DNA of 64,000 bases from a virus. This document shows positions 2,672 to 31,480 of this stretch, piece by piece. Location: the IMG/VR virus record IMGVR_UViG_3300029258_005404. The stretch is one strand, 5' to 3'. Under the pieces are notes generated by a model. The model made no database searches. It was given only the letters and a program-made list of their open reading frames with translations, and was not told the origin of the DNA. Positions within the stretch are counted from its first letter, which is position 1. The number at the start of each line of letters is the position of its first letter. The translations under genes and the position numbers were made by a program.

Positions 2672-5641
2672 CTAATAAACAGGTGTATATTGAGTTCCAC
2701 TTACTCTTTGTAGAACTTTAGATGCATATATCTCAACAGCATTTCGACGCTCTTGAATAAAAGCGGTAATCGGCGTGTGTTCACGAATACTGCTAAACTG
2801 ACCGGCTTCATACATTGTGCCGCCATTTTCCTCTTTCAAACCATCAATTTTTCCACTATTCCAATCAATAGTAGTTACACCATAATATCTATCATGAATA
2901 TCATGGTCATTAAAAAGTATATCAATACCGAGTGACTCCCCCAGCGCAACATGATTCACATATTCATTAACACGATTGCCCTGGCTATCATTCACTTTAT
3001 CTTTAACCGAAAGGCCGAGAATTCCTTGATAAAAGGCGTCTGCAGAACAAACATTTCTTTTTACATATTCAATACATGCAGAATAATTTTGAAGCAATTC
3101 GGGATTTGACCAGGAAAGCGCATTAAGAGCCTCATGGATTGTATTAAATATAAAATGTATTCGTTTTTTCTTATTTTTAGGATCCGAAGCCGTTCCTATC
3201 ATGAAATGGCGCTTGTTATGGCGAAATACGTCACGATAGAATTTTGCTATTCGTGTTGGTTCATATTCCTGATCAATATATATCTGATTACGCTCCCCAT
3301 TAGCAACATCCTGTGCAGTAAGACTCAAAAGATCTTTTGCATATACATATTCACTACCTGGATTAATTGCATCGAGATCATAATAATCTGAATTTAAAAT
3401 GCGTTTTACAGGAGCCTGTGGGTCAGGAACATGATAACTTAGATTTTTATATTCTAATGTGTCCGGATCAATTTCAGCTTCAACAGGCACAGTTGCTTTC
3501 ATATAAAGAGGGCTGCCATATTCGTTCATATCGGTAGGTTCATCTTCGAATCGAGCGTTATTCATAACAACTGATGTATTTGCTTCACCAGACTGTGGTG
3601 TGATATATATTGTGTGCTTTACCTGCTGAACCATTCCAATAATACTCTTCATAGACTCTCCACCATACCCCATATCATCAGCTACTACAACACCTGGAAA
3701 ACCGCACATTATATACGGATTAAAAGCCATATCAATAGTTACAACGCGCCCAGCATATTTTCTATTCAAAAATTTAAGAAGAGCATGGTGTTTCAGTGCG
3801 TTTTTCGTTTTTTCAGTAATCTTTCTATGTCCTTTGAGTTTATTTCTTGCAGCCCGCTTTTCTTCAATTTTCTTTTTTGCAATTTTTAATTTATTTGTTA
3901 CATTCTTTAATCCGGATGTATTAGGTGGCAGTGTTCCCTTTTCTTTTAAAGCACCAAGAGCATTATCTCTTTCAGTTTCAAGTTTTGCTATTTCCTGATC
4001 AATTCTGTCACGAGCCTTTTTATTTGCATTTCTATCCTTCACTACATTAATAGCGTCATTCATTGCAAGCTCATGAGAGACACTTCCAAATACAACATTG
4101 ACCCCTTTATATCTTTCTTCGAGAGTAAGTGGCGGTTTTGTTCTACCATATCGATCTGTTCCTTTTGATTTTGTTGATTTAATATTTGCTGCGGCTTTTT
4201 TTGCATTATCTTCTTGAATGTTAAGTTTTTTTGCAGCATCTATTTGATTATTAAGATTATCTGTACCATCAACAGTTCCATTTGATTTAGTAGTGTCTTT
4301 CTTTTTTTTCTGGTCGGTCATTAAATTGAATAATGCATTTGGAACCTGTACACTTGGTGAGGCAAGCGCATCACCTCCAGGGGTTGAAAGAAGATGAACT
4401 TGATCAAAATAACCACGAGTAACATCTGCATCAATATCATATTGCCATTCAACGCGGTCATACATAGGTGGAAACATCATATTACAATTTGGAGGAGCTG
4501 TAAATTCAAGTGGTGGAAGCAGCATCGATTCATTAAGTATATATTTTCCACCAAATTCAGCTGAAGCCCTGTCAATCAAAAATTTTCTCACACCTGAATC
4601 AATCACATAATTCACTGCGTTATGAGGGGTTCCATCAGCCTTATTTCCAATAGGTATTAAAGAAGGCGTGCTGCATGAATATACCCGAGTGGAAAAAGCC
4701 CCTGCTAAACGCATTATTGCAGCCTCTAAACTAGAAAATCTTGAATTTCCCATCAGATGTGAGCCAATGTGAACACTCCCTCTTTGTCTACTCCAGAAAT
4801 TATATCCTGATTTATTAACCGGGATAAGGAACCGTTTATCAACACGAATACGTTTATTGAGAAACGTTCCTACGGCTGTTCCACCAACAGCCTCCAACCA
4901 CATACCGCGTATTATTGCATCAAGATAAAATCCACAATTTGCAACACCATTATCTGATGGTGTCGCACTGGCAAATTCTGCTGAGTAGGCATCCTGTCCA
5001 TTCTGCTGGGTTTTATTCGCATTATTATCAGCATTTATTTTATCAATCTGTTCATCAAGAGTGCCTGTATTCTCTACAGGAGTTGTTTGCTGTTTAGTAT
5101 TTTTTATTTTATTCGATCTCCTGCTATATCCGGCGCTCCCAGCAATAAGTCCAAGAGTATAACTAAGTGGCGCAAGGCCGGTCTTATCATACACTCTTAT
5201 ATCAGTTCCTTGTCTCTGCGTTTTACCTGGTATAACAAATGTCTGAAATATCCCCATCGAATTATAGAAATTGCGTGTTGTAAGTTTGTCAGCACCTTCC
5301 CATGCCAAAGCCGCCGGAGCGCGCCGTATGTCCATACGAAAATCACGGCAAACCAAACCTATACCTCTCCCTTCAGTAGCCTGGTCAGTTTTATAGAAAC
5401 TTGAAAAAAAGCCGTCAAACATAAGTTGCCATTTCGGCTTCTCTTTACCTACAACCCATTCACGATAGAATATTTGCACAGCAGTCTTCGGTTTTAAATC
5501 GAGCAGCTCCTTATTAGAATAAACATTGATGTTCGCCTCCTGTCCATTCGGTGTACATACAATAGTAGCACCTTTGAAAGGAACAGCAACACCTTCCAGA
5601 AAGAGTTTGAATGAATAATTAAAACCTTTTTTCTCAGCCAT
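2672..5641 (-). CDS. Large tail/baseplate hub-like structural protein (989 aa)
   Basis: Size, beta-rich N-terminus, late MAFNPYIMCGFPGVVV...GMVQQVKHTI segment typical of hub/VgrG-like OB regions; position next to tape-measure-like gene. Confidence 0.45.
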   Translation of the reverse strand: MAEKKGFNYSFKLFLEGVAVPFKGATIVCTPNGQEANINVYSNKELLDLKPKTAVQIFYREWVVGKEKPKWQLMFDGFFSSFYKTDQATEGRGIGLVCRDFRMDIRRAPAALAWEGADKLTTRNFYNSMGIFQTFVIPGKTQRQGTDIRVYDKTGLAPLSYTLGLIAGSAGYSRRSNKIKNTKQQTTPVENTGTLDEQIDKINADNNANKTQQNGQDAYSAEFASATPSDNGVANCGFYLDAIIRGMWLEAVGGTAVGTFLNKRIRVDKRFLIPVNKSGYNFWSRQRGSVHIGSHLMGNSRFSSLEAAIMRLAGAFSTRVYSCSTPSLIPIGNKADGTPHNAVNYVIDSGVRKFLIDRASAEFGGKYILNESMLLPPLEFTAPPNCNMMFPPMYDRVEWQYDIDADVTRGYFDQVHLLSTPGGDALASPSVQVPNALFNLMTDQKKKKDTTKSNGTVDGTDNLNNQIDAAKKLNIQEDNAKKAAANIKSTKSKGTDRYGRTKPPLTLEERYKGVNVVFGSVSHELAMNDAINVVKDRNANKKARDRIDQEIAKLETERDNALGALKEKGTLPPNTSGLKNVTNKLKIAKKKIEEKRAARNKLKGHRKITEKTKNALKHHALLKFLNRKYAGRVVTIDMAFNPYIMCGFPGVVVADDMGYGGESMKSIIGMVQQVKHTIYITPQSGEANTSVVMNNARFEDEPTDMNEYGSPLYMKATVPVEAEIDPDTLEYKNLSYHVPDPQAPVKRILNSDYYDLDAINPGSEYVYAKDLLSLTAQDVANGERNQIYIDQEYEPTRIAKFYRDVFRHNKRHFMIGTASDPKNKKKRIHFIFNTIHEALNALSWSNPELLQNYSACIEYVKRNVCSADAFYQGILGLSVKDKVNDSQGNRVNEYVNHVALGESLGIDILFNDHDIHDRYYGVTTIDWNSGKIDGLKEENGGTMYEAGQFSSIREHTPITAFIQERRNAVEIYASKVLQRVSGTQYTPVY

Positions 5642-5642
5642 A

Positions 5643-6506
5643 TTATACGTTTTCTAATGGATTTCCTGTAGAATCAGATTCAACTATAAACCCATCAGGT
5701 ATAGTCTCATCGAGTGCCGCTGTTTCAATTGAGCCGGCAAGAAATTCTCCGGACAGCCTCGCAGCATTTCTCATACCATTAAATTCGTCAACCTGTATAT
5801 ATCTACCAAGATTAGTAGAATAAATTGGCATAAGATTAATTCTTGCCCATGCTGACTTCCTGACCAAAACTGAAAATGTAAATGATTTACTTTGTTCCAT
5901 ATCACCGGTTGCGGTAGTTGAAATGCTAAGCATATATCCATCAATAATTCTGCCATCATATATCATTTTCATTTGCATATTATTTTCGACAGCGCGTCTT
6001 CCACGTAAATATTTCTCGTATGCAAGCATAAATTCCTGATAGTATGGATATTCTCTTGTATCGAGAAAGATTCCTGAGAAATTATAGATAGATGGCTTTT
6101 CACCAAAGAAAAATGCATTCCATCCATTTGAAAAGTTTTGATGAAGTTTGACAATCTCACCATGTGCTTCTTGCACATTAATAAGTGAGAAATTGTTAAA
6201 TACACCATAATAATTATTTGGCGCCTTACCATCAAGTGAAAGAAGTGCAATTTTTCCACCAGGAATTGATGGCGGTGAAGACACATCGCCACTTACCGAT
6301 TCAGCTTCGAGCTCTGTTATACTCATTGATAAATCAGTAAGATAATCATTGGTCTTGAGCGCATCATCTGAAACAAAACCCTGAGAGGTGGTATAAAGAA
6401 TAATAGTTGCAACTGTTCCTTCATGCTCAGTTGTACCAACCGTATATGGCCTCACTTTACTATCGGTTGGTGATGCTAGAAACTCATTTGGTAAGCGTGG
6501 TGGCAT
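5643..6506 (-). CDS. Putative tail/baseplate protein
   Basis: 287-aa ORF abutting the hub-like gene; AFFFGEKPSIYNFSGIF motif resembles tube-initiator-like proteins. Confidence 0.4.
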   Translation of the reverse strand: MPPRLPNEFLASPTDSKVRPYTVGTTEHEGTVATIILYTTSQGFVSDDALKTNDYLTDLSMSITELEAESVSGDVSSPPSIPGGKIALLSLDGKAPNNYYGVFNNFSLINVQEAHGEIVKLHQNFSNGWNAFFFGEKPSIYNFSGIFLDTREYPYYQEFMLAYEKYLRGRRAVENNMQMKMIYDGRIIDGYMLSISTTATGDMEQSKSFTFSVLVRKSAWARINLMPIYSTNLGRYIQVDEFNGMRNAARLSGEFLAGSIETAALDETIPDGFIVESDSTGNPLENV

Positions 6507-26828: not shown

Positions 26829-27176
26829 ATGAGAATGTGGATGGTTCCTCCGCAAATATTATGCAGAAAACACCTTTTTGGAGAACATGGTGAAATTCAT
26901 AAACACCGTCATAATTTTGTTAAAAAATATTCTATAAATGGTCGAATATTTCCAGTCGTTCAAATAGAGCCATCATCAATGTTAATTCGGCATGATGAAT
27001 TGGCAGAAGAGATGTTGCGACGAGGATATAATCATAAATCACCTTATTATATGCCTGATATCTCATACCTTCCTGAAGAAATACGTAATTCCAAAGTTGA
27101 TATTAATAAATCGATTGAAGATCTTATTGATAGGTGTGAAGATTGCAAATTAAGAATAATGAATATAGGGGGATAA
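26829..27176 (+). CDS. Pyrimidine-dimer DNA glycosylase (T4 endonuclease V-like)
   Basis: MRMWMVPPQILCRKHLFGEHGEIH...RHDELAEEMLRRGYNHKSP. Confidence 0.75.
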   Translation: MRMWMVPPQILCRKHLFGEHGEIHKHRHNFVKKYSINGRIFPVVQIEPSSMLIRHDELAEEMLRRGYNHKSPYYMPDISYLPEEIRNSKVDINKSIEDLIDRCEDCKLRIMNIGG

Positions 27177-27560
27177 TGTGAAACCAAAAGATATACCTAC
27201 CATGATACAAATCATGAAGGCTTCCCGGAAAAAAAAGTGATTCTGTTACAAGACGGCCTTTCTATACCTCATCTGAGATGTTGGGGTATTCGCCAGCGAG
27301 GCAACACTCTGGCATTTTTTACATGTATTGACAGGGTTCATTCAAACGGTTGGAAAGAACCGGAAGATTGGCGCGTTTCATACAGAAAAATGTTCGGTGC
27401 TATGTGGTGGGATGATAAAATTGAGCGGATGCTCGGCAACCCAGTGATAATTAAATACCGGTATGATACTTTCATGCCGTGGTCTACTCAGCACTTTTTC
27501 TCAGTTCGTGTATATATGCAATATTTTAACGAATTTGAAATAATTGATTAAGGAGGATAA

Positions 27561-28022
27561 ATGAGTTTATATAATCAGATACTTGGAACACATCCATTTT
27601 TACAACACCTTTTCGCGTTACTTGGCCTTGGTGTAAATGAGGATGATGAATATTATGTCGGAAAGATACGGGATTTATACGTGATCAAGATTGAAGATAT
27701 ATTCAAAATCATTTTGTATACCAGGAATGGCGGACCAAACAGAAAATCTTTTTCTTTGGTTTTCAAGAAATTAAGATCGCATCCGAATTACATCAAAGAT
27801 TATGATTGTAATATCGATAATACATATGCGTATTTTGAATTCTCACCACCAAAAGATTGTTTAGATATCGTTCAGGAAATATATGATATAGCTCCTGAAG
27901 AAAGAGGTACCAAACTCTTTATGCGGGTGTGTGATAATATGAGGAAAGGTAAGAAAGATCCAATAACAAATCGTGCCCTTGAGGTTGGCAAAAAAAATAC
28001 TGAAACCAATTTTAAATGGTGA
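27561..28022 (+). CDS. Hypothetical phage protein
   Basis: ILYTRNGGPNR...HPNYIKDYDC..DNTYAYFEFS; the C-terminus may be frameshifted at the A8 run 27990-27997. Confidence 0.55.
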   Translation: MSLYNQILGTHPFLQHLFALLGLGVNEDDEYYVGKIRDLYVIKIEDIFKIILYTRNGGPNRKSFSLVFKKLRSHPNYIKDYDCNIDNTYAYFEFSPPKDCLDIVQEIYDIAPEERGTKLFMRVCDNMRKGKKDPITNRALEVGKKNTETNFKW

Positions 28023-28071
28023 TATTGAAAATAGTGGTATTGTAGAAGTATAATTTCTCAAACATAAAAAC

Positions 28072-28099
28072 GTTATAATTTTGGCTTTTCTGGTATAAT
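28072..28099 (+). promoter_or_regulatory. Bipartite promoter motif, copy 3, upstream of the Cas12-like gene
   Basis: GTTAT at 28072, TCTGGTATAAT at 28089; AAGGAGG SD before ATG 28143. Confidence 0.65.
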
Positions 28100-28142
28100 A
28101 ATAACAGTAAATAGCTTTAATAATTTATTAAAGGAGGGCTAG

Positions 28143-29357
28143 ATGGCCAAAGTTAAAAAAGCTAATACTGGCCTTAACAGAACGGTTGTATTTGAAGTCA
28201 GTGTTGCTAATAATAATATTAAAAAACAAGTCATGGCGTCTATAGATAAATATAGAGCAGTGGCACGAAAGATGTATTCATCGGTTGCGATGGCAGCAAC
28301 TGCAGGAGCAACAATCGAAGTAAAAAATGGTGATGTCAGGGTTAAACCTTATACTCAAAATTCAAAAGATATATTGTCAAAAGCATATAATGTGTCTGGA
28401 AAAGCTCAATTTTATGAATTAAGAAATTTCGTATTAAAAGATCATGCTAATACATGGCAATCTGTAATATGGGATTCTTGCAGACTTGCAGTGGCTGGGA
28501 CATGGAATCATGCTGATCCCGAATTTTCTAAAGGTGAAAAGAAGGTTGGACGTGGCTGGTTATCACTCCAAGGCGCAAGAGCTTTTGGATTTTTCAATCG
28601 TTGTGGTATAGGTTTACCAAATACAAAATCTATACAATTTGGTTCAAAAAGTATGACGATGAAATGGGACAAGGAAATTGATGATGTAACATTTTTCGTT
28701 GACAGTAAGCTTCCCGGGAATACATTCTGGAAATTTAAGAACATAAGAGATGGTGTATGGGAAAGGGGTACATGTTACATTGGGTGGAAGTATAAAAATA
28801 TCGGTGGTGGTAAAAAAGTAAAAACACTTTATATAACAATGACCTATAAACTTCCAGAAAATTATTTCAATGAGGAATCAGGTGAAGGTGTTATGATTGT
28901 TGAGTTTACAGATGATCCTGAAAACGGAATCGTCATGTATTCTGATGATAAGTTCCATTATTCCGACAAAATAAGTGTGTATGAGGCTATAGCATGGAAT
29001 AAGCAACTCAATGTTGTAAAGGATTACTACAAAAAACAAAGAGCATCAGTTGGTGGTAGAGATAAGCAGTGGGGTCTCAACCAAAGTCTCATGGTTATTA
29101 GTAACAAAAGTGAAAATTTGACCAAAAGGAGAATTAACGGCAAAAAGCATCGGAATCATATATGGGCCAACAGAATAGTGGCGAGAGTTAGACAATGGGG
29201 TATGGGTGTTGTTGTACTCAAAGATTTTCCTGACGGCCTATTAATTGATCAGGAATGGTCTATGTTTGAGCTTAAAGAAATATTGAAGTACAAACTTAGA
29301 GAAATTGGGTGTGAGTTGAAAACCTATAATACCCCAAAAGAAGAAGAAGCTGCTTAG
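28143..29357 (+). CDS. Compact nuclease-dead TnpB/Cas12 (type V-like) effector, 404 aa
   Basis: TnpB-like order: WED strand RTVVFEV, LYITMTYKLP, RuvC-I-like strand GVMIVEF (no catalytic Asp), bridge helix HRNHIWANRIVARVRQWG, RuvC-II-like VVVLKDF (Glu to Lys), WSMFELKEILKYKLREIG; ends before Zn finger and RuvC-III; directly upstream of a CRISPR array. Confidence 0.75.
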   Translation: MAKVKKANTGLNRTVVFEVSVANNNIKKQVMASIDKYRAVARKMYSSVAMAATAGATIEVKNGDVRVKPYTQNSKDILSKAYNVSGKAQFYELRNFVLKDHANTWQSVIWDSCRLAVAGTWNHADPEFSKGEKKVGRGWLSLQGARAFGFFNRCGIGLPNTKSIQFGSKSMTMKWDKEIDDVTFFVDSKLPGNTFWKFKNIRDGVWERGTCYIGWKYKNIGGGKKVKTLYITMTYKLPENYFNEESGEGVMIVEFTDDPENGIVMYSDDKFHYSDKISVYEAIAWNKQLNVVKDYYKKQRASVGGRDKQWGLNQSLMVISNKSENLTKRRINGKKHRNHIWANRIVARVRQWGMGVVVLKDFPDGLLIDQEWSMFELKEILKYKLREIGCELKTYNTPKEEEAA

Positions 29358-29381
29358 GAATCTAAATAGCGCACGGGAGAA

Positions 29382-29530
29382 ATTAAAAATATAGGCGCTA
29401 TGGAAATTGTGTTATACTAGGCCCTAAAAAAAATATCAGAGTAATTTTTTCATACGAGTGAGGGAAATTGATTAGGCTACAGCGCCATTCTAAAAGATTT
29501 CTGAACTTATTTGTACATAAGGAAAGCTGA
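29382..29530 (+). repeat. Three degenerate CRISPR repeat remnants in register with the array
   Basis: GCGCTATGGAAATTG (unit start 29382), CGAGTGAGGGAAATTG (29443), AAGGAAAGCTG (29502); spacing 61/59/61 nt. Confidence 0.5.
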
Positions 29531-29562
29531 GTGGTGAGATTTTGGATGTTGTATCAATTATT

Positions 29563-29954
29563 GTTTCTTCCGCGCGCGCGAGGGAAACTGGGATTTGCAT
29601 TTAATTTCAACTACCTGCGCAAGTATGCTCCGCGCGCGCGGGGGAAACTGGATATTCGGCCGGGAGAGGGCGAAACAGCTGTAGTATGCTCCGCGCGCGC
29701 GAGGGAAACTGGGTTACTTCGTACCTCTATTCCATCATATCCTAGTATTCTCCGCGCGCGCGATGGAAACTGGGGAAATTTCCAATCATACTGGCGTGAC
29801 CATAGTATTCTCCGCGCGCGCGAGGAAAACTGGGTTTCTTTTATATACAAAAGGGTGCAATATTGTATTCTCCGCGCGCGCGAGGGAAACTGGCCCCCCA
29901 GCATTTGAACTTGCCGTTATCGTTCGTTTCTTTCGCGCGCGCGAGGGAAACTGG
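29563..29954 (+). CRISPR. CRISPR array: 7 repeats of 29 nt, 6 spacers of 31-32 nt, type I-E-like repeat
   Basis: Repeats start at 29563, 29623, 29684, 29745, 29805, 29865, 29926; consensus GTATTCTCCGCGCGCGCGAGGGAAACTGG; six unrelated spacers. Confidence 0.95.
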
Positions 29955-29989
29955 TTTGGGATATTTCGGTTTTAAAAATAAATTTATAT

Positions 29990-30111
29990 CCGGAAATAGT
30001 AAGGTGAACACCCTTGCATTTCTTTACAAGTTACAACTGAGGCTACAGTTTGTCTCGTGGATAGTAGAGTGCTATCTAATGTTCCGATGGAACACCCTCG
30101 CGCGCCTTTTT
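29990..30111 (+). ncRNA. Putative tracrRNA with split anti-repeat
   Basis: CAGTTT (30046-51) and CCCTCGCGCGC (30095-105) are complementary to repeat nt 23-28 and 12-22; two hairpins between them; T5 tract after; 5' end is a guess. Confidence 0.6.
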
Positions 30112-30134
30112 ATTAATAAATCAAAGGATATAAT

Positions 30135-30359
30135 ATGACTAAATTAAAACCGAAAATATGTCCACACTGCGGGGTATTATTTACCCCCGCAGTGCCTGGA
30201 CAAAAATATCACAGTCCAAGATGTCGGAAAAATGATTATAGTTCCAGAAAACAATATTTTCCACGCTTCGGTAATGATGCAAAAATGAGACATGTCTTCA
30301 GAACAGAGAAAAACGTTATAACAAAATACTCAAAGGAGGTAGAATTTGCCAAAAAGTAA
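30135..30359 (+). CDS. Small Zn-finger-like protein
   Basis: CPHCG...YHSPRC motif. Confidence 0.5.
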   Translation: MTKLKPKICPHCGVLFTPAVPGQKYHSPRCRKNDYSSRKQYFPRFGNDAKMRHVFRTEKNVITKYSKEVEFAKK

Positions 30360-31010
30360 AATGGAGGAATTCCGTGAAAATGGAAAAAAAATACAGGAAG
30401 GATGTATTGCTGAAATGGAAAACCTTCGAAAGTCGTGGATAGATTATAAAGCTAATAATGAGACACATGGTGACGCCATGCTCCTCATACGCCAATCCAG
30501 AGCGCATGCATACAATGCGTCAGCGGCTGTCCGTGAAAGGGTAATAGAGATGGGTCTCCATGTGGGTAGCGGCTATTACCATCCTTAAAAAAAAGTACTA
30601 ATTAAATGTACTTTTTTTTATTTATTTATAATAAACCAGTTTAAGAATTGAGGATTAACATGGGCTATATATTGCAATCAAATTTTGATGGTTTAATCGG
30701 AAAAAAGTGCAGAGTTGAACCAGGTGATCGACCGGGTATTGATAAGTCACATAGTGTATCTGTAAAAGCAGGAGACGAACAGAATGGTGTTATTATTGGA
30801 TATGTTGTAGAGCTTAACAATGAAATGTTTGAGAACGATCCTGTTGATATTGAAACTATGCCATTAACTGTTTTTCTTTATATTCTTATTACGCATAATA
30901 ATGGTGATGGAAACCAATGGTCTGAAATTGTTAGGGAGGATTTTTCATATGTAACATTTAATTAAATATTTCTTTAACCAAAACGTATATTATTAGTAAG
31001 GAGTCAAACA

Positions 31011-31079
31011 ATGTTACCAATATAGGTTACTTCAATTCACCCGCCGTAGATTTTTTACCGCAAGCGCAAACCGCCGTAA
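31011..31079 (+). promoter_or_regulatory. Stop-codon-punctuated leader: MLPI(TAG)VTSIHPP(TAG)IFYRKRKPP(TAA)
   Basis: AAGGAG SD before ATG 31011; in-frame CCG CCG TAG (31041) and CCG CCG TAA (31071). Confidence 0.5.
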
Positions 31080-31153
31080 TCTCTATTATACCATTCTGTA
31101 TAATACCAATTAGTATAACAAATTTTATTTAATTTATTTTTAAGGAGATTACA

Positions 31154-31480
31154 TTGAATATTTCAATTGAACAGATTAAACTTATCAGTCAGTTCAAGAA
31201 AGAGCTGAAATTAGAAGCGGCTGCGCTTCAACGCCTTAAACAGGACACTAAAAATGCCCAGAGAGAAGGTGATGTTGCTACTGGAGACCTTCAGTTTAAG
31301 ATTATCAAGAACAAAAATAAATTTCGGCATCGCCACATTGCATACTGTATGTTGCGCGGAAAGAAATACAATGAAATCGAAAAAAAATGCAGATGTAATC
31401 CAAACTTCAAAACAATCGAACTGATTAAAGGTAAATATACATACCATGGTACAGAAGAAACTATATCTGCTGCTGCGTAA
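31154..31480 (+). CDS. Phage hypothetical protein overlapping the Pth2-like gene
   Basis: RHRHIAYCMLRGKKYNEIE motif; AAGGAG SD. Confidence 0.6.
   Translation: MNISIEQIKLISQFKKELKLEAAALQRLKQDTKNAQREGDVATGDLQFKIIKNKNKFRHRHIAYCMLRGKKYNEIEKKCRCNPNFKTIELIKGKYTYHGTEETISAAA

Follow-up and report, generated by a model that had tools for sequence, protein, structure and literature searches.

A 64,000-nucleotide stretch of DNA from the IMG/VR virus record IMGVR_UViG_3300029258_005404, the whole of which stretch we refer to as the window, carries a compact CRISPR locus whose parts all lie on the plus strand. The locus begins with an open reading frame (ORF) for a 404-aa protein, P0001 (dcas12f; 28143-29357), which reads as a nuclease-dead, C-terminally truncated homologue of Cas12f. 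It is followed by an AT-rich leader of 205 nt between the ORF end at 29357 and the array start at 29563, a CRISPR array of seven palindromic 29-nt repeats and six spacers of 31-32 nt (29563-29954), a trans-activating CRISPR RNA (tracrRNA) with three hairpins and a 3' anti-repeat tail (30038-30106, running into a TTTTT stretch to 30111) and, starting 24 nt after this T-run, a 74-aa zinc-ribbon ORF (ZR, product P0147; 30135-30359). A first-pass annotation, made from the letters of the sequence alone, had placed a 404-aa ORF, an array of seven repeats and six spacers and an anti-repeat RNA within 2 kb of each other, and all are present as claimed; the ZR ORF was absent from its list.

The window is phage DNA, since the P0001 protein is present on contigs of up to 186 kb and ORFs of the window match PHROG families with E-values of 1e-275 and 6e-98. 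Here, we describe how profile searches, structure prediction and covariance analysis reveal at this locus a Cas12f-fold protein without a nuclease centre, which covariation links to a dual guide RNA and an array and which is under selection in many phage lineages.

A predicted Cas12f fold without the catalytic triad

Single-sequence searches with P0001 of Pfam, NCBIfam, PHROGs and the PDB sequences returned nothing significant, a word-indexed search with the effector retrieved three proteins only, and the relationship to Cas12f is visible only via a family profile. As gathered by an exhaustive phmmer search, the P0001 family comprises 143 clusters at 50% identity, mostly of 360-480 aa; the family profile and all residue counts given here were built on 70 of these 143 cluster members. 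The profile matches OsCas12f (9nzq; E 4.9e-26), SpCas12f1 (E 3e-21), AsCas12f (E ~1e-20), CnCas12f (E 2.5e-17) and the nuclease-deactivated dCas12f of PDB entry 9n9c (E 1e-15), and is nearer to the nuclease-active OsCas12f and AsCas12f than to the latter. An AlphaFold (AF2) model of P0001 computed on the 70-member alignment has a mean predicted local distance difference test score (pLDDT) of 93.5. Foldseek searches with this model place AsCas12f (8j12) first at 7.6e-14 and dCas12f next at 3.7e-13, followed by TnpB, Cas12k and Cas12m, and VIA-align of a homologue with a fused C-terminal ribbon, P0019, gives a Z of 22 versus Cas12f. The TnpB/Cas12-like fold that the first-pass annotation had proposed is thus found by profile (Cas12f, E 4.9e-26) and by model (AsCas12f, 7.6e-14) alike.

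The same annotation had read the RuvC-I motif as VMIVEF and the RuvC-II motif as VVVLKDF. Both readings align as claimed, with E254 at the position of the RuvC-I Asp and K360 at the position of the RuvC-II Glu in the profile alignment to OsCas12f, and they hold for the whole family: the RuvC-I Asp is found in 0 of 70 members, as is the D+E pair at RuvC-I and RuvC-II. P0001 terminates about 20 residues past a YK..E.G motif, before any zinc finger or RuvC-III, and across the 70 members the tail after this motif has a median of 19 aa and ends before the TNB zinc finger and RuvC-III. Despite these losses the family has 15 nearly invariant residues, and full-length open frames are kept across the 143 clusters. 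From alignment and modelling, we read P0001 as a protein with a predicted Cas12f WED-REC-RuvC fold that lacks the catalytic triad.

The array and its covarying tracrRNA

The seven repeats start at 29563, 29623, 29684, 29745, 29805, 29865 and 29926, a spacing of 60-61 nt, and the regularity of the array is far above chance. Two independent samples (L004 and L005) contain the identical array, and GC content climbs from ~0.35 to 0.50 across it. With its 29-nt palindromic repeat, which by itself folds into a hairpin, and its 32-nt spacers, the array has the type I-E-like geometry that the first-pass annotation had pointed out. The likeness appears to stop at geometry, however, as the 3' ends of the repeats pair with the locus's own tracrRNA and an Rfam scan over 27000-31500 (E up to 1) matched no family, CRISPR-DR included. 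The repeat 3' ends (..GGG) are also unlike the type I-E handle.

What identifies the RNA behind the array is its conservation across the family. Copies from 18 different loci align over ~68 nt as three hairpins and a 3' tail, and the covariance model that they yield detects 34 copies in the initial set of loci, a further 4 in loci added later and exactly one in the window (30038-30103, E 4e-11). In the model-fitted alignment 92.9% of cells are paired versus 58% in shuffles, and 160 cells are changed on both sides versus 48 (0 of 500 shuffles reach 160), although these figures are somewhat inflated by the fit to the covariance model; slide controls, in which the partners are moved by 1-3 columns, leave 33-45% paired. 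An independent MAFFT alignment shows compensatory changes in 10 of 12 pairs.

The tracrRNA makes two contacts with the repeat. The loop of its first hairpin (hairpin 0) base-pairs with the 6 nt that end the repeat, immediately 5' of the spacer, and its 3' tail with 11 nt in the repeat middle. Both contacts covary with the repeat found at the same locus, over no fewer than 15 different types of repeat. Summed over cognate pairs, the energies of the loop duplexes amount to -107 kcal/mol and those of the tail duplexes to -265 kcal/mol, and none of 20,000 permutations of RNAs against repeats was as good as the cognate pairing. When the tracrRNA of the window is cofolded with a repeat-spacer unit, the 11-bp tail duplex is present in the minimum (-51 kcal/mol versus -33 kcal/mol for the RNAs apart). 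The RNA at 30038-30106 is a true tracrRNA. Its defined pairings and a guide that lies 3' of the repeat also settle which strand is transcribed and how the guide is oriented. The two-contact layout resembles the dual repeat:anti-repeat and pseudoknot arrangement of Cas12f guide RNAs and TnpB omega-RNAs.

Several relatives carry second tracrRNA copies behind or between arrays (L001:8268-8334, L029:6074-6140, L024:2747-2813, L031:1005-1072 and L013:5812-5877); the one in L013 precedes a second array, which has another repeat and a 66-nt period. For the window, the covariance model finds no intact second tracrRNA upstream of the array, which rules out such a copy there. The leader holds only a vestige at 29455-29482, where local alignments identify a degenerate 3' half-repeat (13/16 identity) and 9 nt equal to the tracrRNA 5' start. 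Perhaps this vestige is the scar of a lost upstream tracrRNA copy that is still kept by a related 208-kb phage.

Array linkage in a phage-borne family

That related phage, which CheckV rates as 100% complete, carries P0003, one of the two nearest relatives of P0001 (P0003 and P0002, 48% identity), and downstream of both lie arrays whose repeat is almost that of the window. The window and its 48%-identity relative share their gene order and differ completely in their spacers. More distant homologues, drawn from IMG/VR, JGI metagenomes and Logan/ENA assemblies, have arrays with a 61-62-nt period and ~29-nt repeats, located downstream or flanking; arrays adjoin homologues at 26-48% identity in L001, L003, L007, L009, L013-L017, L023, L024, L027-L029, L031, L040, L042 and L043. 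Many homologue contigs break inside the array, as expected for repeats, and some locus scans could not use alignments A3 and A4 because of their divergence. Array linkage is a property of the family, and the pairing of effector and array proposed in the first-pass annotation holds for homologues down to 26% identity, with tracrRNAs that covary with the repeats.

Where contexts are visible they are phage-like, with many small unannotated ORFs, a weak terminase-like GpA_ATPase match, helicases, VRR_NUC, Mgm101 and a DNA methylase. The family comes almost wholly from metagenomes. The 20 members that we looked up are singletons or pairs, and 19 of them come from JGI, ENA or Logan only, described at most as 'hypothetical protein'; the remaining one is also found in an NCBI metagenome assembly. 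Scanning 185,579 species genomes with two peptide patterns returned one locus, on a 3.5-kb contig of a Bacteriovoracaceae metagenome-assembled genome (MAG), a result that is limited by the patterns and is no proof of absence from cells.

The relatives differ in how their guides are organized. In L020 (1991-2388), downstream of the dCas12f homologue, there are three tandem units, each combining a tracr-like scaffold with half a repeat, ~20-24 nt and a T-run; such units resemble natural fused single-guide RNAs that replace the array, and the covariance model matches two of them. In L010 (3600-3960 and 5280-5900) and L012 (4880-5150), 'mini-arrays' flank the dCas12f homologues, with repeat remnants of 9-13 nt, corresponding to the tracrRNA-pairing part, and spacers of 10-25 nt. 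The guides of the family thus form a series: array and tracrRNA as in the window, mini-arrays in L010 and L012, and three tandem fused guides in L020, in keeping with the transition put forward in PMC10691335. A groundwater phage-like contig, L043, has arrays with different repeats on both sides of its dCas12f homologue (4040-4319 and 5656-6050), and a canonical TnpB (HTH_OrfB, OrfB_IS605, TNB) 3 kb upstream.

Two further loci, L040 (6277-9110) and L041 (944-3777), have a gene for a 574-aa AAA ATPase whose end coincides with the start codon of the dCas12f homologue, and in this sub-clade the ATPase is a possible operon partner. In L016, a helix-turn-helix (HTH) gene abuts the effector gene.

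A zinc-ribbon gene behind the array

In the ZR protein, a CxxC...HxxxC ribbon is combined with a basic tail and a helix. No significant family was found for it in Pfam or PHROG; Pfam gave weak zinc-ribbon matches only and no recognisable enzymatic or sigma-like domain, the ZR profile hit generic zinc fingers only in the PDB, and a word-indexed search with ZR retrieved only ZR itself. Homologues do however exist behind the array in L001, L013, L021/22, L024, L025/26, L028, L029 and L031, and the ZR profile detects 10 distinct loci (E 1e-19 to 1e-30) with no other match in the locus DNA searched.

The most informative homologue is P0019 (L017), in which the ZR domain is fused in frame to the dCas12f C-terminus, exactly where the TNB starts in Cas12f. 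The Pfam model Cas12f1-like_TNB matches P0019 residues 385-440 with E 3.6e-5, just under the model cut-off, and alignments of the fused P0019 model to AsCas12f and SpCas12f1 reach residue 435-438 (Z ~22). The first-pass annotation had the protein stop before both the zinc finger and RuvC-III. This is correct for the effector ORF, which lacks both, but a ribbon gene stands behind the array and its counterpart is part of the effector in P0019. By synteny and fusion, we read ZR as a conserved second subunit. As a working hypothesis, which we somewhat favour, ZR would be the detached TNB, that is, the zinc-finger domain of Cas12f. ZR does not restore RuvC-III, as there is no conserved acidic residue after the ribbon.

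In L025 (3749-5160) and L026 (4001-5412), the dCas12f homologue has its own short C-terminal CxxC...CxxC ribbon and a separate ZR gene follows directly; further downstream, these loci show two weak tracr-like matches and no regular array.

Spacer targets and spacer uptake

Within the window and L001-L014, the window spacers at up to 8 mismatches match only the arrays themselves. An array that regulates its own phage was considered and is rejected for the 208-kb relative, whose array has no self-targets in its genome. Spacer GC ranges from ~26 to 56% (counted by eye) versus ~35% in the locus flanks. Since the spacers differ between relatives, are of mixed GC and have no match in the close relative of the carrier phage or, in the case of that relative's array, in its own genome, their target is likely foreign DNA, either of the host or of rival mobile elements.

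How spacers enter the array is not explicable by the phage's own genes, because cas1 and cas2 are missing: neither Cas1 nor Cas2 is encoded by the complete 208-kb phage or by two further viral contigs, and among the eight ORFs that flank the locus in the window, which were the ORFs covered by the scan, Pfam found no match to cas1, cas2, cas6 or Cascade. The 29/32-nt geometry suggests that spacers may instead be taken up by a type I-E-like module of the host.

Relation to known systems

Type V-F (Cas12f1/Cas14, with AsCas12f 8j12 and OsCas12f 9nzq) provides the best profile and fold matches. The window system shares with it a miniature effector, an adjacent array, a tracrRNA with a 3' anti-repeat, and a guide located 3' of the repeat. 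Type V-F effectors, however, have an active D-E-D RuvC and a TNB in cis, whereas in the window the triad is gone and the ribbon lies in a separate gene, so that the same polypeptide does not combine an intact triad and a TNB. Type V-F is also often accompanied by cas1, cas2 and cas4, and these adaptation genes are lacking in the relatives and flanking ORFs covered above. The repeats and tracrRNA of type V-F are longer than those of the window.

Nuclease-dead Cas12f proteins at CRISPR arrays have been described before. Altae-Tran et al. (PNAS 2023; PMC10691335, Fig. 5D) place in the history of these proteins a stage at which Cas12f lost its catalytic activity along with RuvC-III and kept its arrays, and propose that the array subsequently shrank to a minimum and that half a repeat was joined to the tracrRNA. 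Hoffmann et al. (Nature 2026; PMC13472631, Extended Data Fig. 1a,b) report a 'distinct cluster of dCas12f near CRISPR arrays'. The fold, the RuvC mutations, the removal of RuvC-III by truncation and an array beside an effector with a covarying RNA are all found in the window system. As judged by these published descriptions, it shares with the published CRISPR-associated dCas12f the truncation before RuvC-III, the mutated RuvC-I and RuvC-II, the adjacent array, the structured RNA and the proposed role as a repressor. The first-pass annotation had not recognised the combination as a named subtype; it is a type V-F derivative, a dCas12f, and dead Cas12f proteins beside arrays are already described in PMC10691335 and PMC13472631. 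The published examples differ in that they come from bacterial genomes and MAGs (e.g. Chitinophagaceae, with an efflux promoter as the target), whereas the family of the window is almost wholly metagenomic and phage-borne, with arrays of 29/32-nt geometry and, in roughly every second locus, a ZR gene that stands apart from the effector. The main texts of PMC10691335 and PMC13472631 make no mention of phages, of a zinc-ribbon partner or of this array geometry. CRISPR-linked dead Cas12f is thus already known from surveys, by bioinformatics rather than by experiment, and the system that we describe is a phage-borne variant of it.

The closest solved dead relative is dCas12f-sigmaE (9n9c; PMC13472631), likewise a dead, truncated Cas12f of ~365 aa, with a VIA Z of 21.8 over the whole chain and the profile match given above. 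It differs in that one chimeric guide RNA takes the place of tracrRNA and array, in its rpoE gene, for a sigmaE with a C-terminal extension, and usually an HTH gene, and in activating transcription, whereas the window has an array and a separate tracrRNA and its eight flanking ORFs encode neither a sigma factor nor an HTH protein. Neither the single guide nor the sigma-factor genes that characterise dCas12f-sigmaE are therefore found in the window, although fused guides like its single guide occur in the relative L020.

Cas12m (type V-M), Cas12k (type V-K) and TldR resemble the window system in that they likely bind their targets without cleavage, in the case of Cas12m and TldR for transcriptional silencing, but they represent separate TnpB/Cas12 branches with weaker fold matches (Z ~17 for Cas12k and ~11-13 for Cas12m). 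In addition, Cas12m lacks a tracrRNA and its RuvC is still partly intact, Cas12k acts together with Tn7, and TldR uses an omega-RNA and has no array. Type V effectors of phages, namely Cas-phi/Cas12j, Cas-lambda and Cas12r, are about twice the size of the window effector. These systems (for Cas12r, of Thermus Lalka phages, see bioRxiv 10.64898/2026.04.20.719267) also combine a compact effector with an array, lack adaptation genes and have been proposed to act in conflicts between mobile elements; they are, however, active nucleases of other Cas12 branches.

Genes and signals around the locus

Upstream of the effector gene, a consensus scan finds a sigma-70-like promoter candidate on the plus strand (TTGAAA-18-TATAAT, 28025-28054, 11/12 positions) and a second, TGnTATAAT-like box near 28090, also on the plus strand. 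The promoter motif of the first-pass annotation can therefore be located, but promoter-like sites are no more frequent in this sequence than in shuffled sequence, which leaves 28025-28054 as a plausible candidate only. Among the accessory genes that surround the locus are those for a DenV-like glycosylase and for a DUF5983 protein, and one with a weak match to Acb3. The DenV-like pyrimidine-dimer glycosylase gene (26829-27176, Pfam E 1e-12) lies just upstream of the CRISPR locus, and a 104-aa ORF at 27237-27551, also upstream, weakly matches Acb3 (E 0.013), an inhibitor of cyclic-oligonucleotide-based antiphage signalling systems (CBASS). This upstream neighbourhood looks like an accessory or counter-defence region. 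By Pfam, the eight flanking ORFs include no sigma factor, HTH protein or enzyme domain, and the gene tables of L001, L004 and L005 list no sigma or HTH genes.

Proposed function and alternatives

We consider it probable that the locus is a phage-encoded, nuclease-dead derivative of type V-F, a CRISPR-associated dCas12f, that binds and silences its targets without cutting them. dCas12f, probably as a dimer as in Cas12f, would form a complex with ZR, the tracrRNA and a processed CRISPR RNA (crRNA). This complex would recognise DNA that can pair with the 5' portion of the spacer beside a short protospacer-adjacent or target-adjacent motif (PAM/TAM), form an R-loop and remain bound. During the lytic development of a 186-kb phage, transcription or replication of the target would be blocked, which would amount to a natural form of CRISPR interference (CRISPRi) directed at host genes or at those of rival phages and mobile elements, with spacers that may be acquired through host machinery or inherited. 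Roadblock-type silencing is known for Cas12m, TldR and type IV systems, and by analogy it would be the simplest reading of the locus, with recruitment of a partner as its main rival.

Several observations weigh against this proposal. The window spacers match nothing in the INPHARED phages or the PLSDB plasmids, nor do the arrays of L001, L029 and L016 match phages; spacers 2 and 6 of the window are absent as exact 22-mers from IMG/VR, and the related 208-kb phage contains no protospacer for the window array. The class of target, the PAM and the silencing role are therefore putative, and so is the silencing of host or competitor genes put forward in the first-pass annotation, as these spacer searches yielded no protospacer. 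RNA and DNA binding by dCas12f are predicted from sequence and model. The RuvC-I residue of P0001 is a Glu (E254) and thus still acidic, so that the loss of activity in P0001 rests on K360 and the missing RuvC-III. As for the ribbon, the P0019 model has a pLDDT of only 50-65 in this region (residues 410-460), and sequence similarity between ZR and TNB is weak: hhalign sets the CxxCG motifs of ZR and the TnpB TNB in register without significance (E 0.011 and probability 4% for the TnpB C-terminus). Roughly half of the loci with sufficient flanking sequence furthermore lack ZR (L007, L014, L016, L040-L044), and ZR therefore marks a sub-clade nearer the window.

If dCas12f binds DNA without cutting, it might also serve as an RNA-guided recruiter of a partner, such as a transcription or sigma factor, a nuclease, a helicase or ZR as an adaptor, with activation, degradation or another reaction at the target as the outcome rather than a roadblock. 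We regard this as unlikely, although it has a precedent in the closest solved dead relative, dCas12f 9n9c, which acts by recruiting sigmaE (PMC13472631), and the family does offer candidates: the conserved small ZR gene, the AAA ATPase gene abutting the effector in L040 and L041, and the HTH gene in L016. However, the eight ORFs flanking the window locus hold no sigma factor, HTH protein or enzyme domain, the partners other than ZR vary between loci, and no enzymatic or sigma-like domain can be recognised in ZR. The array might, on the other hand, have little to do with dCas12f and serve a type I-E Cascade of the host, or be fed by the host's I-E Cas1-Cas2, with dCas12f as a neighbour that has a separate role, for instance as a dominant-negative anti-CRISPR against a host Cas12f. 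The 29-nt palindromic repeat, its hairpin and the 32-nt spacers copy type I-E geometry, and the phage relatives have no adaptation genes. Yet this explanation seems quite improbable to us, as over at least 15 repeat types both the repeat middle and the last 6 nt change in step with the locus's tracrRNA, which ties the array to the dCas12f module; the absence of a CRISPR-DR match and the ..GGG ends, which differ from the I-E handle, point the same way. Uptake of spacers by a borrowed host I-E adaptation machinery is compatible with silencing by dCas12f too.

The locus could finally be a decaying or inactive remnant of a Cas12f system without a present function, in line with the lost catalytic residues and truncated C-terminus, the vestigial half-repeat and tracr fragment in the leader and an array that is the same in two samples, with no turnover seen. 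Decay is hard to reconcile with the full-length frames and 15 nearly invariant residues retained over 143 clusters at 50% identity, with compensatory changes that maintain both the RNA hairpins and the intermolecular pairings, and with phages at 48% protein identity that share gene order and have wholly different spacers. We consider it the least probable of these explanations, and very improbable indeed.

Beyond silencing by a phage-encoded dCas12f as such, a more elaborate version can be entertained, tentatively and with more doubt than conviction: a phage-borne dead Cas12f in two pieces, with the ancestral zinc finger as a separate subunit encoded beyond the array and with a dual RNA, would interfere by binding with host or rival genes, using spacers from an I-E-like module of the host, and the family would be a living series for the passage from Cas12f to single guides that PMC10691335 proposes. 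An I-E-like adaptation module of the host would explain the 29/32-nt geometry.

If true, 404 aa, 74 aa and a tracrRNA of ~68 nt would make up a virus-carried, RNA-guided DNA binder with a multi-spacer array. Should binding hold, the window system would to our knowledge rank with the smallest RNA-guided DNA binders in nature that have a genuine array of several spacers, and a compact natural binder with a defined short tracrRNA would be of interest for CRISPRi-type tools. As the family holds several guide formats together with split and fused ribbons, the route from Cas12f to dead effectors with single guides becomes directly testable. For the phages themselves, the proposed function would mean that they use programmable silencing, and not cutting alone, against their hosts and rival elements.

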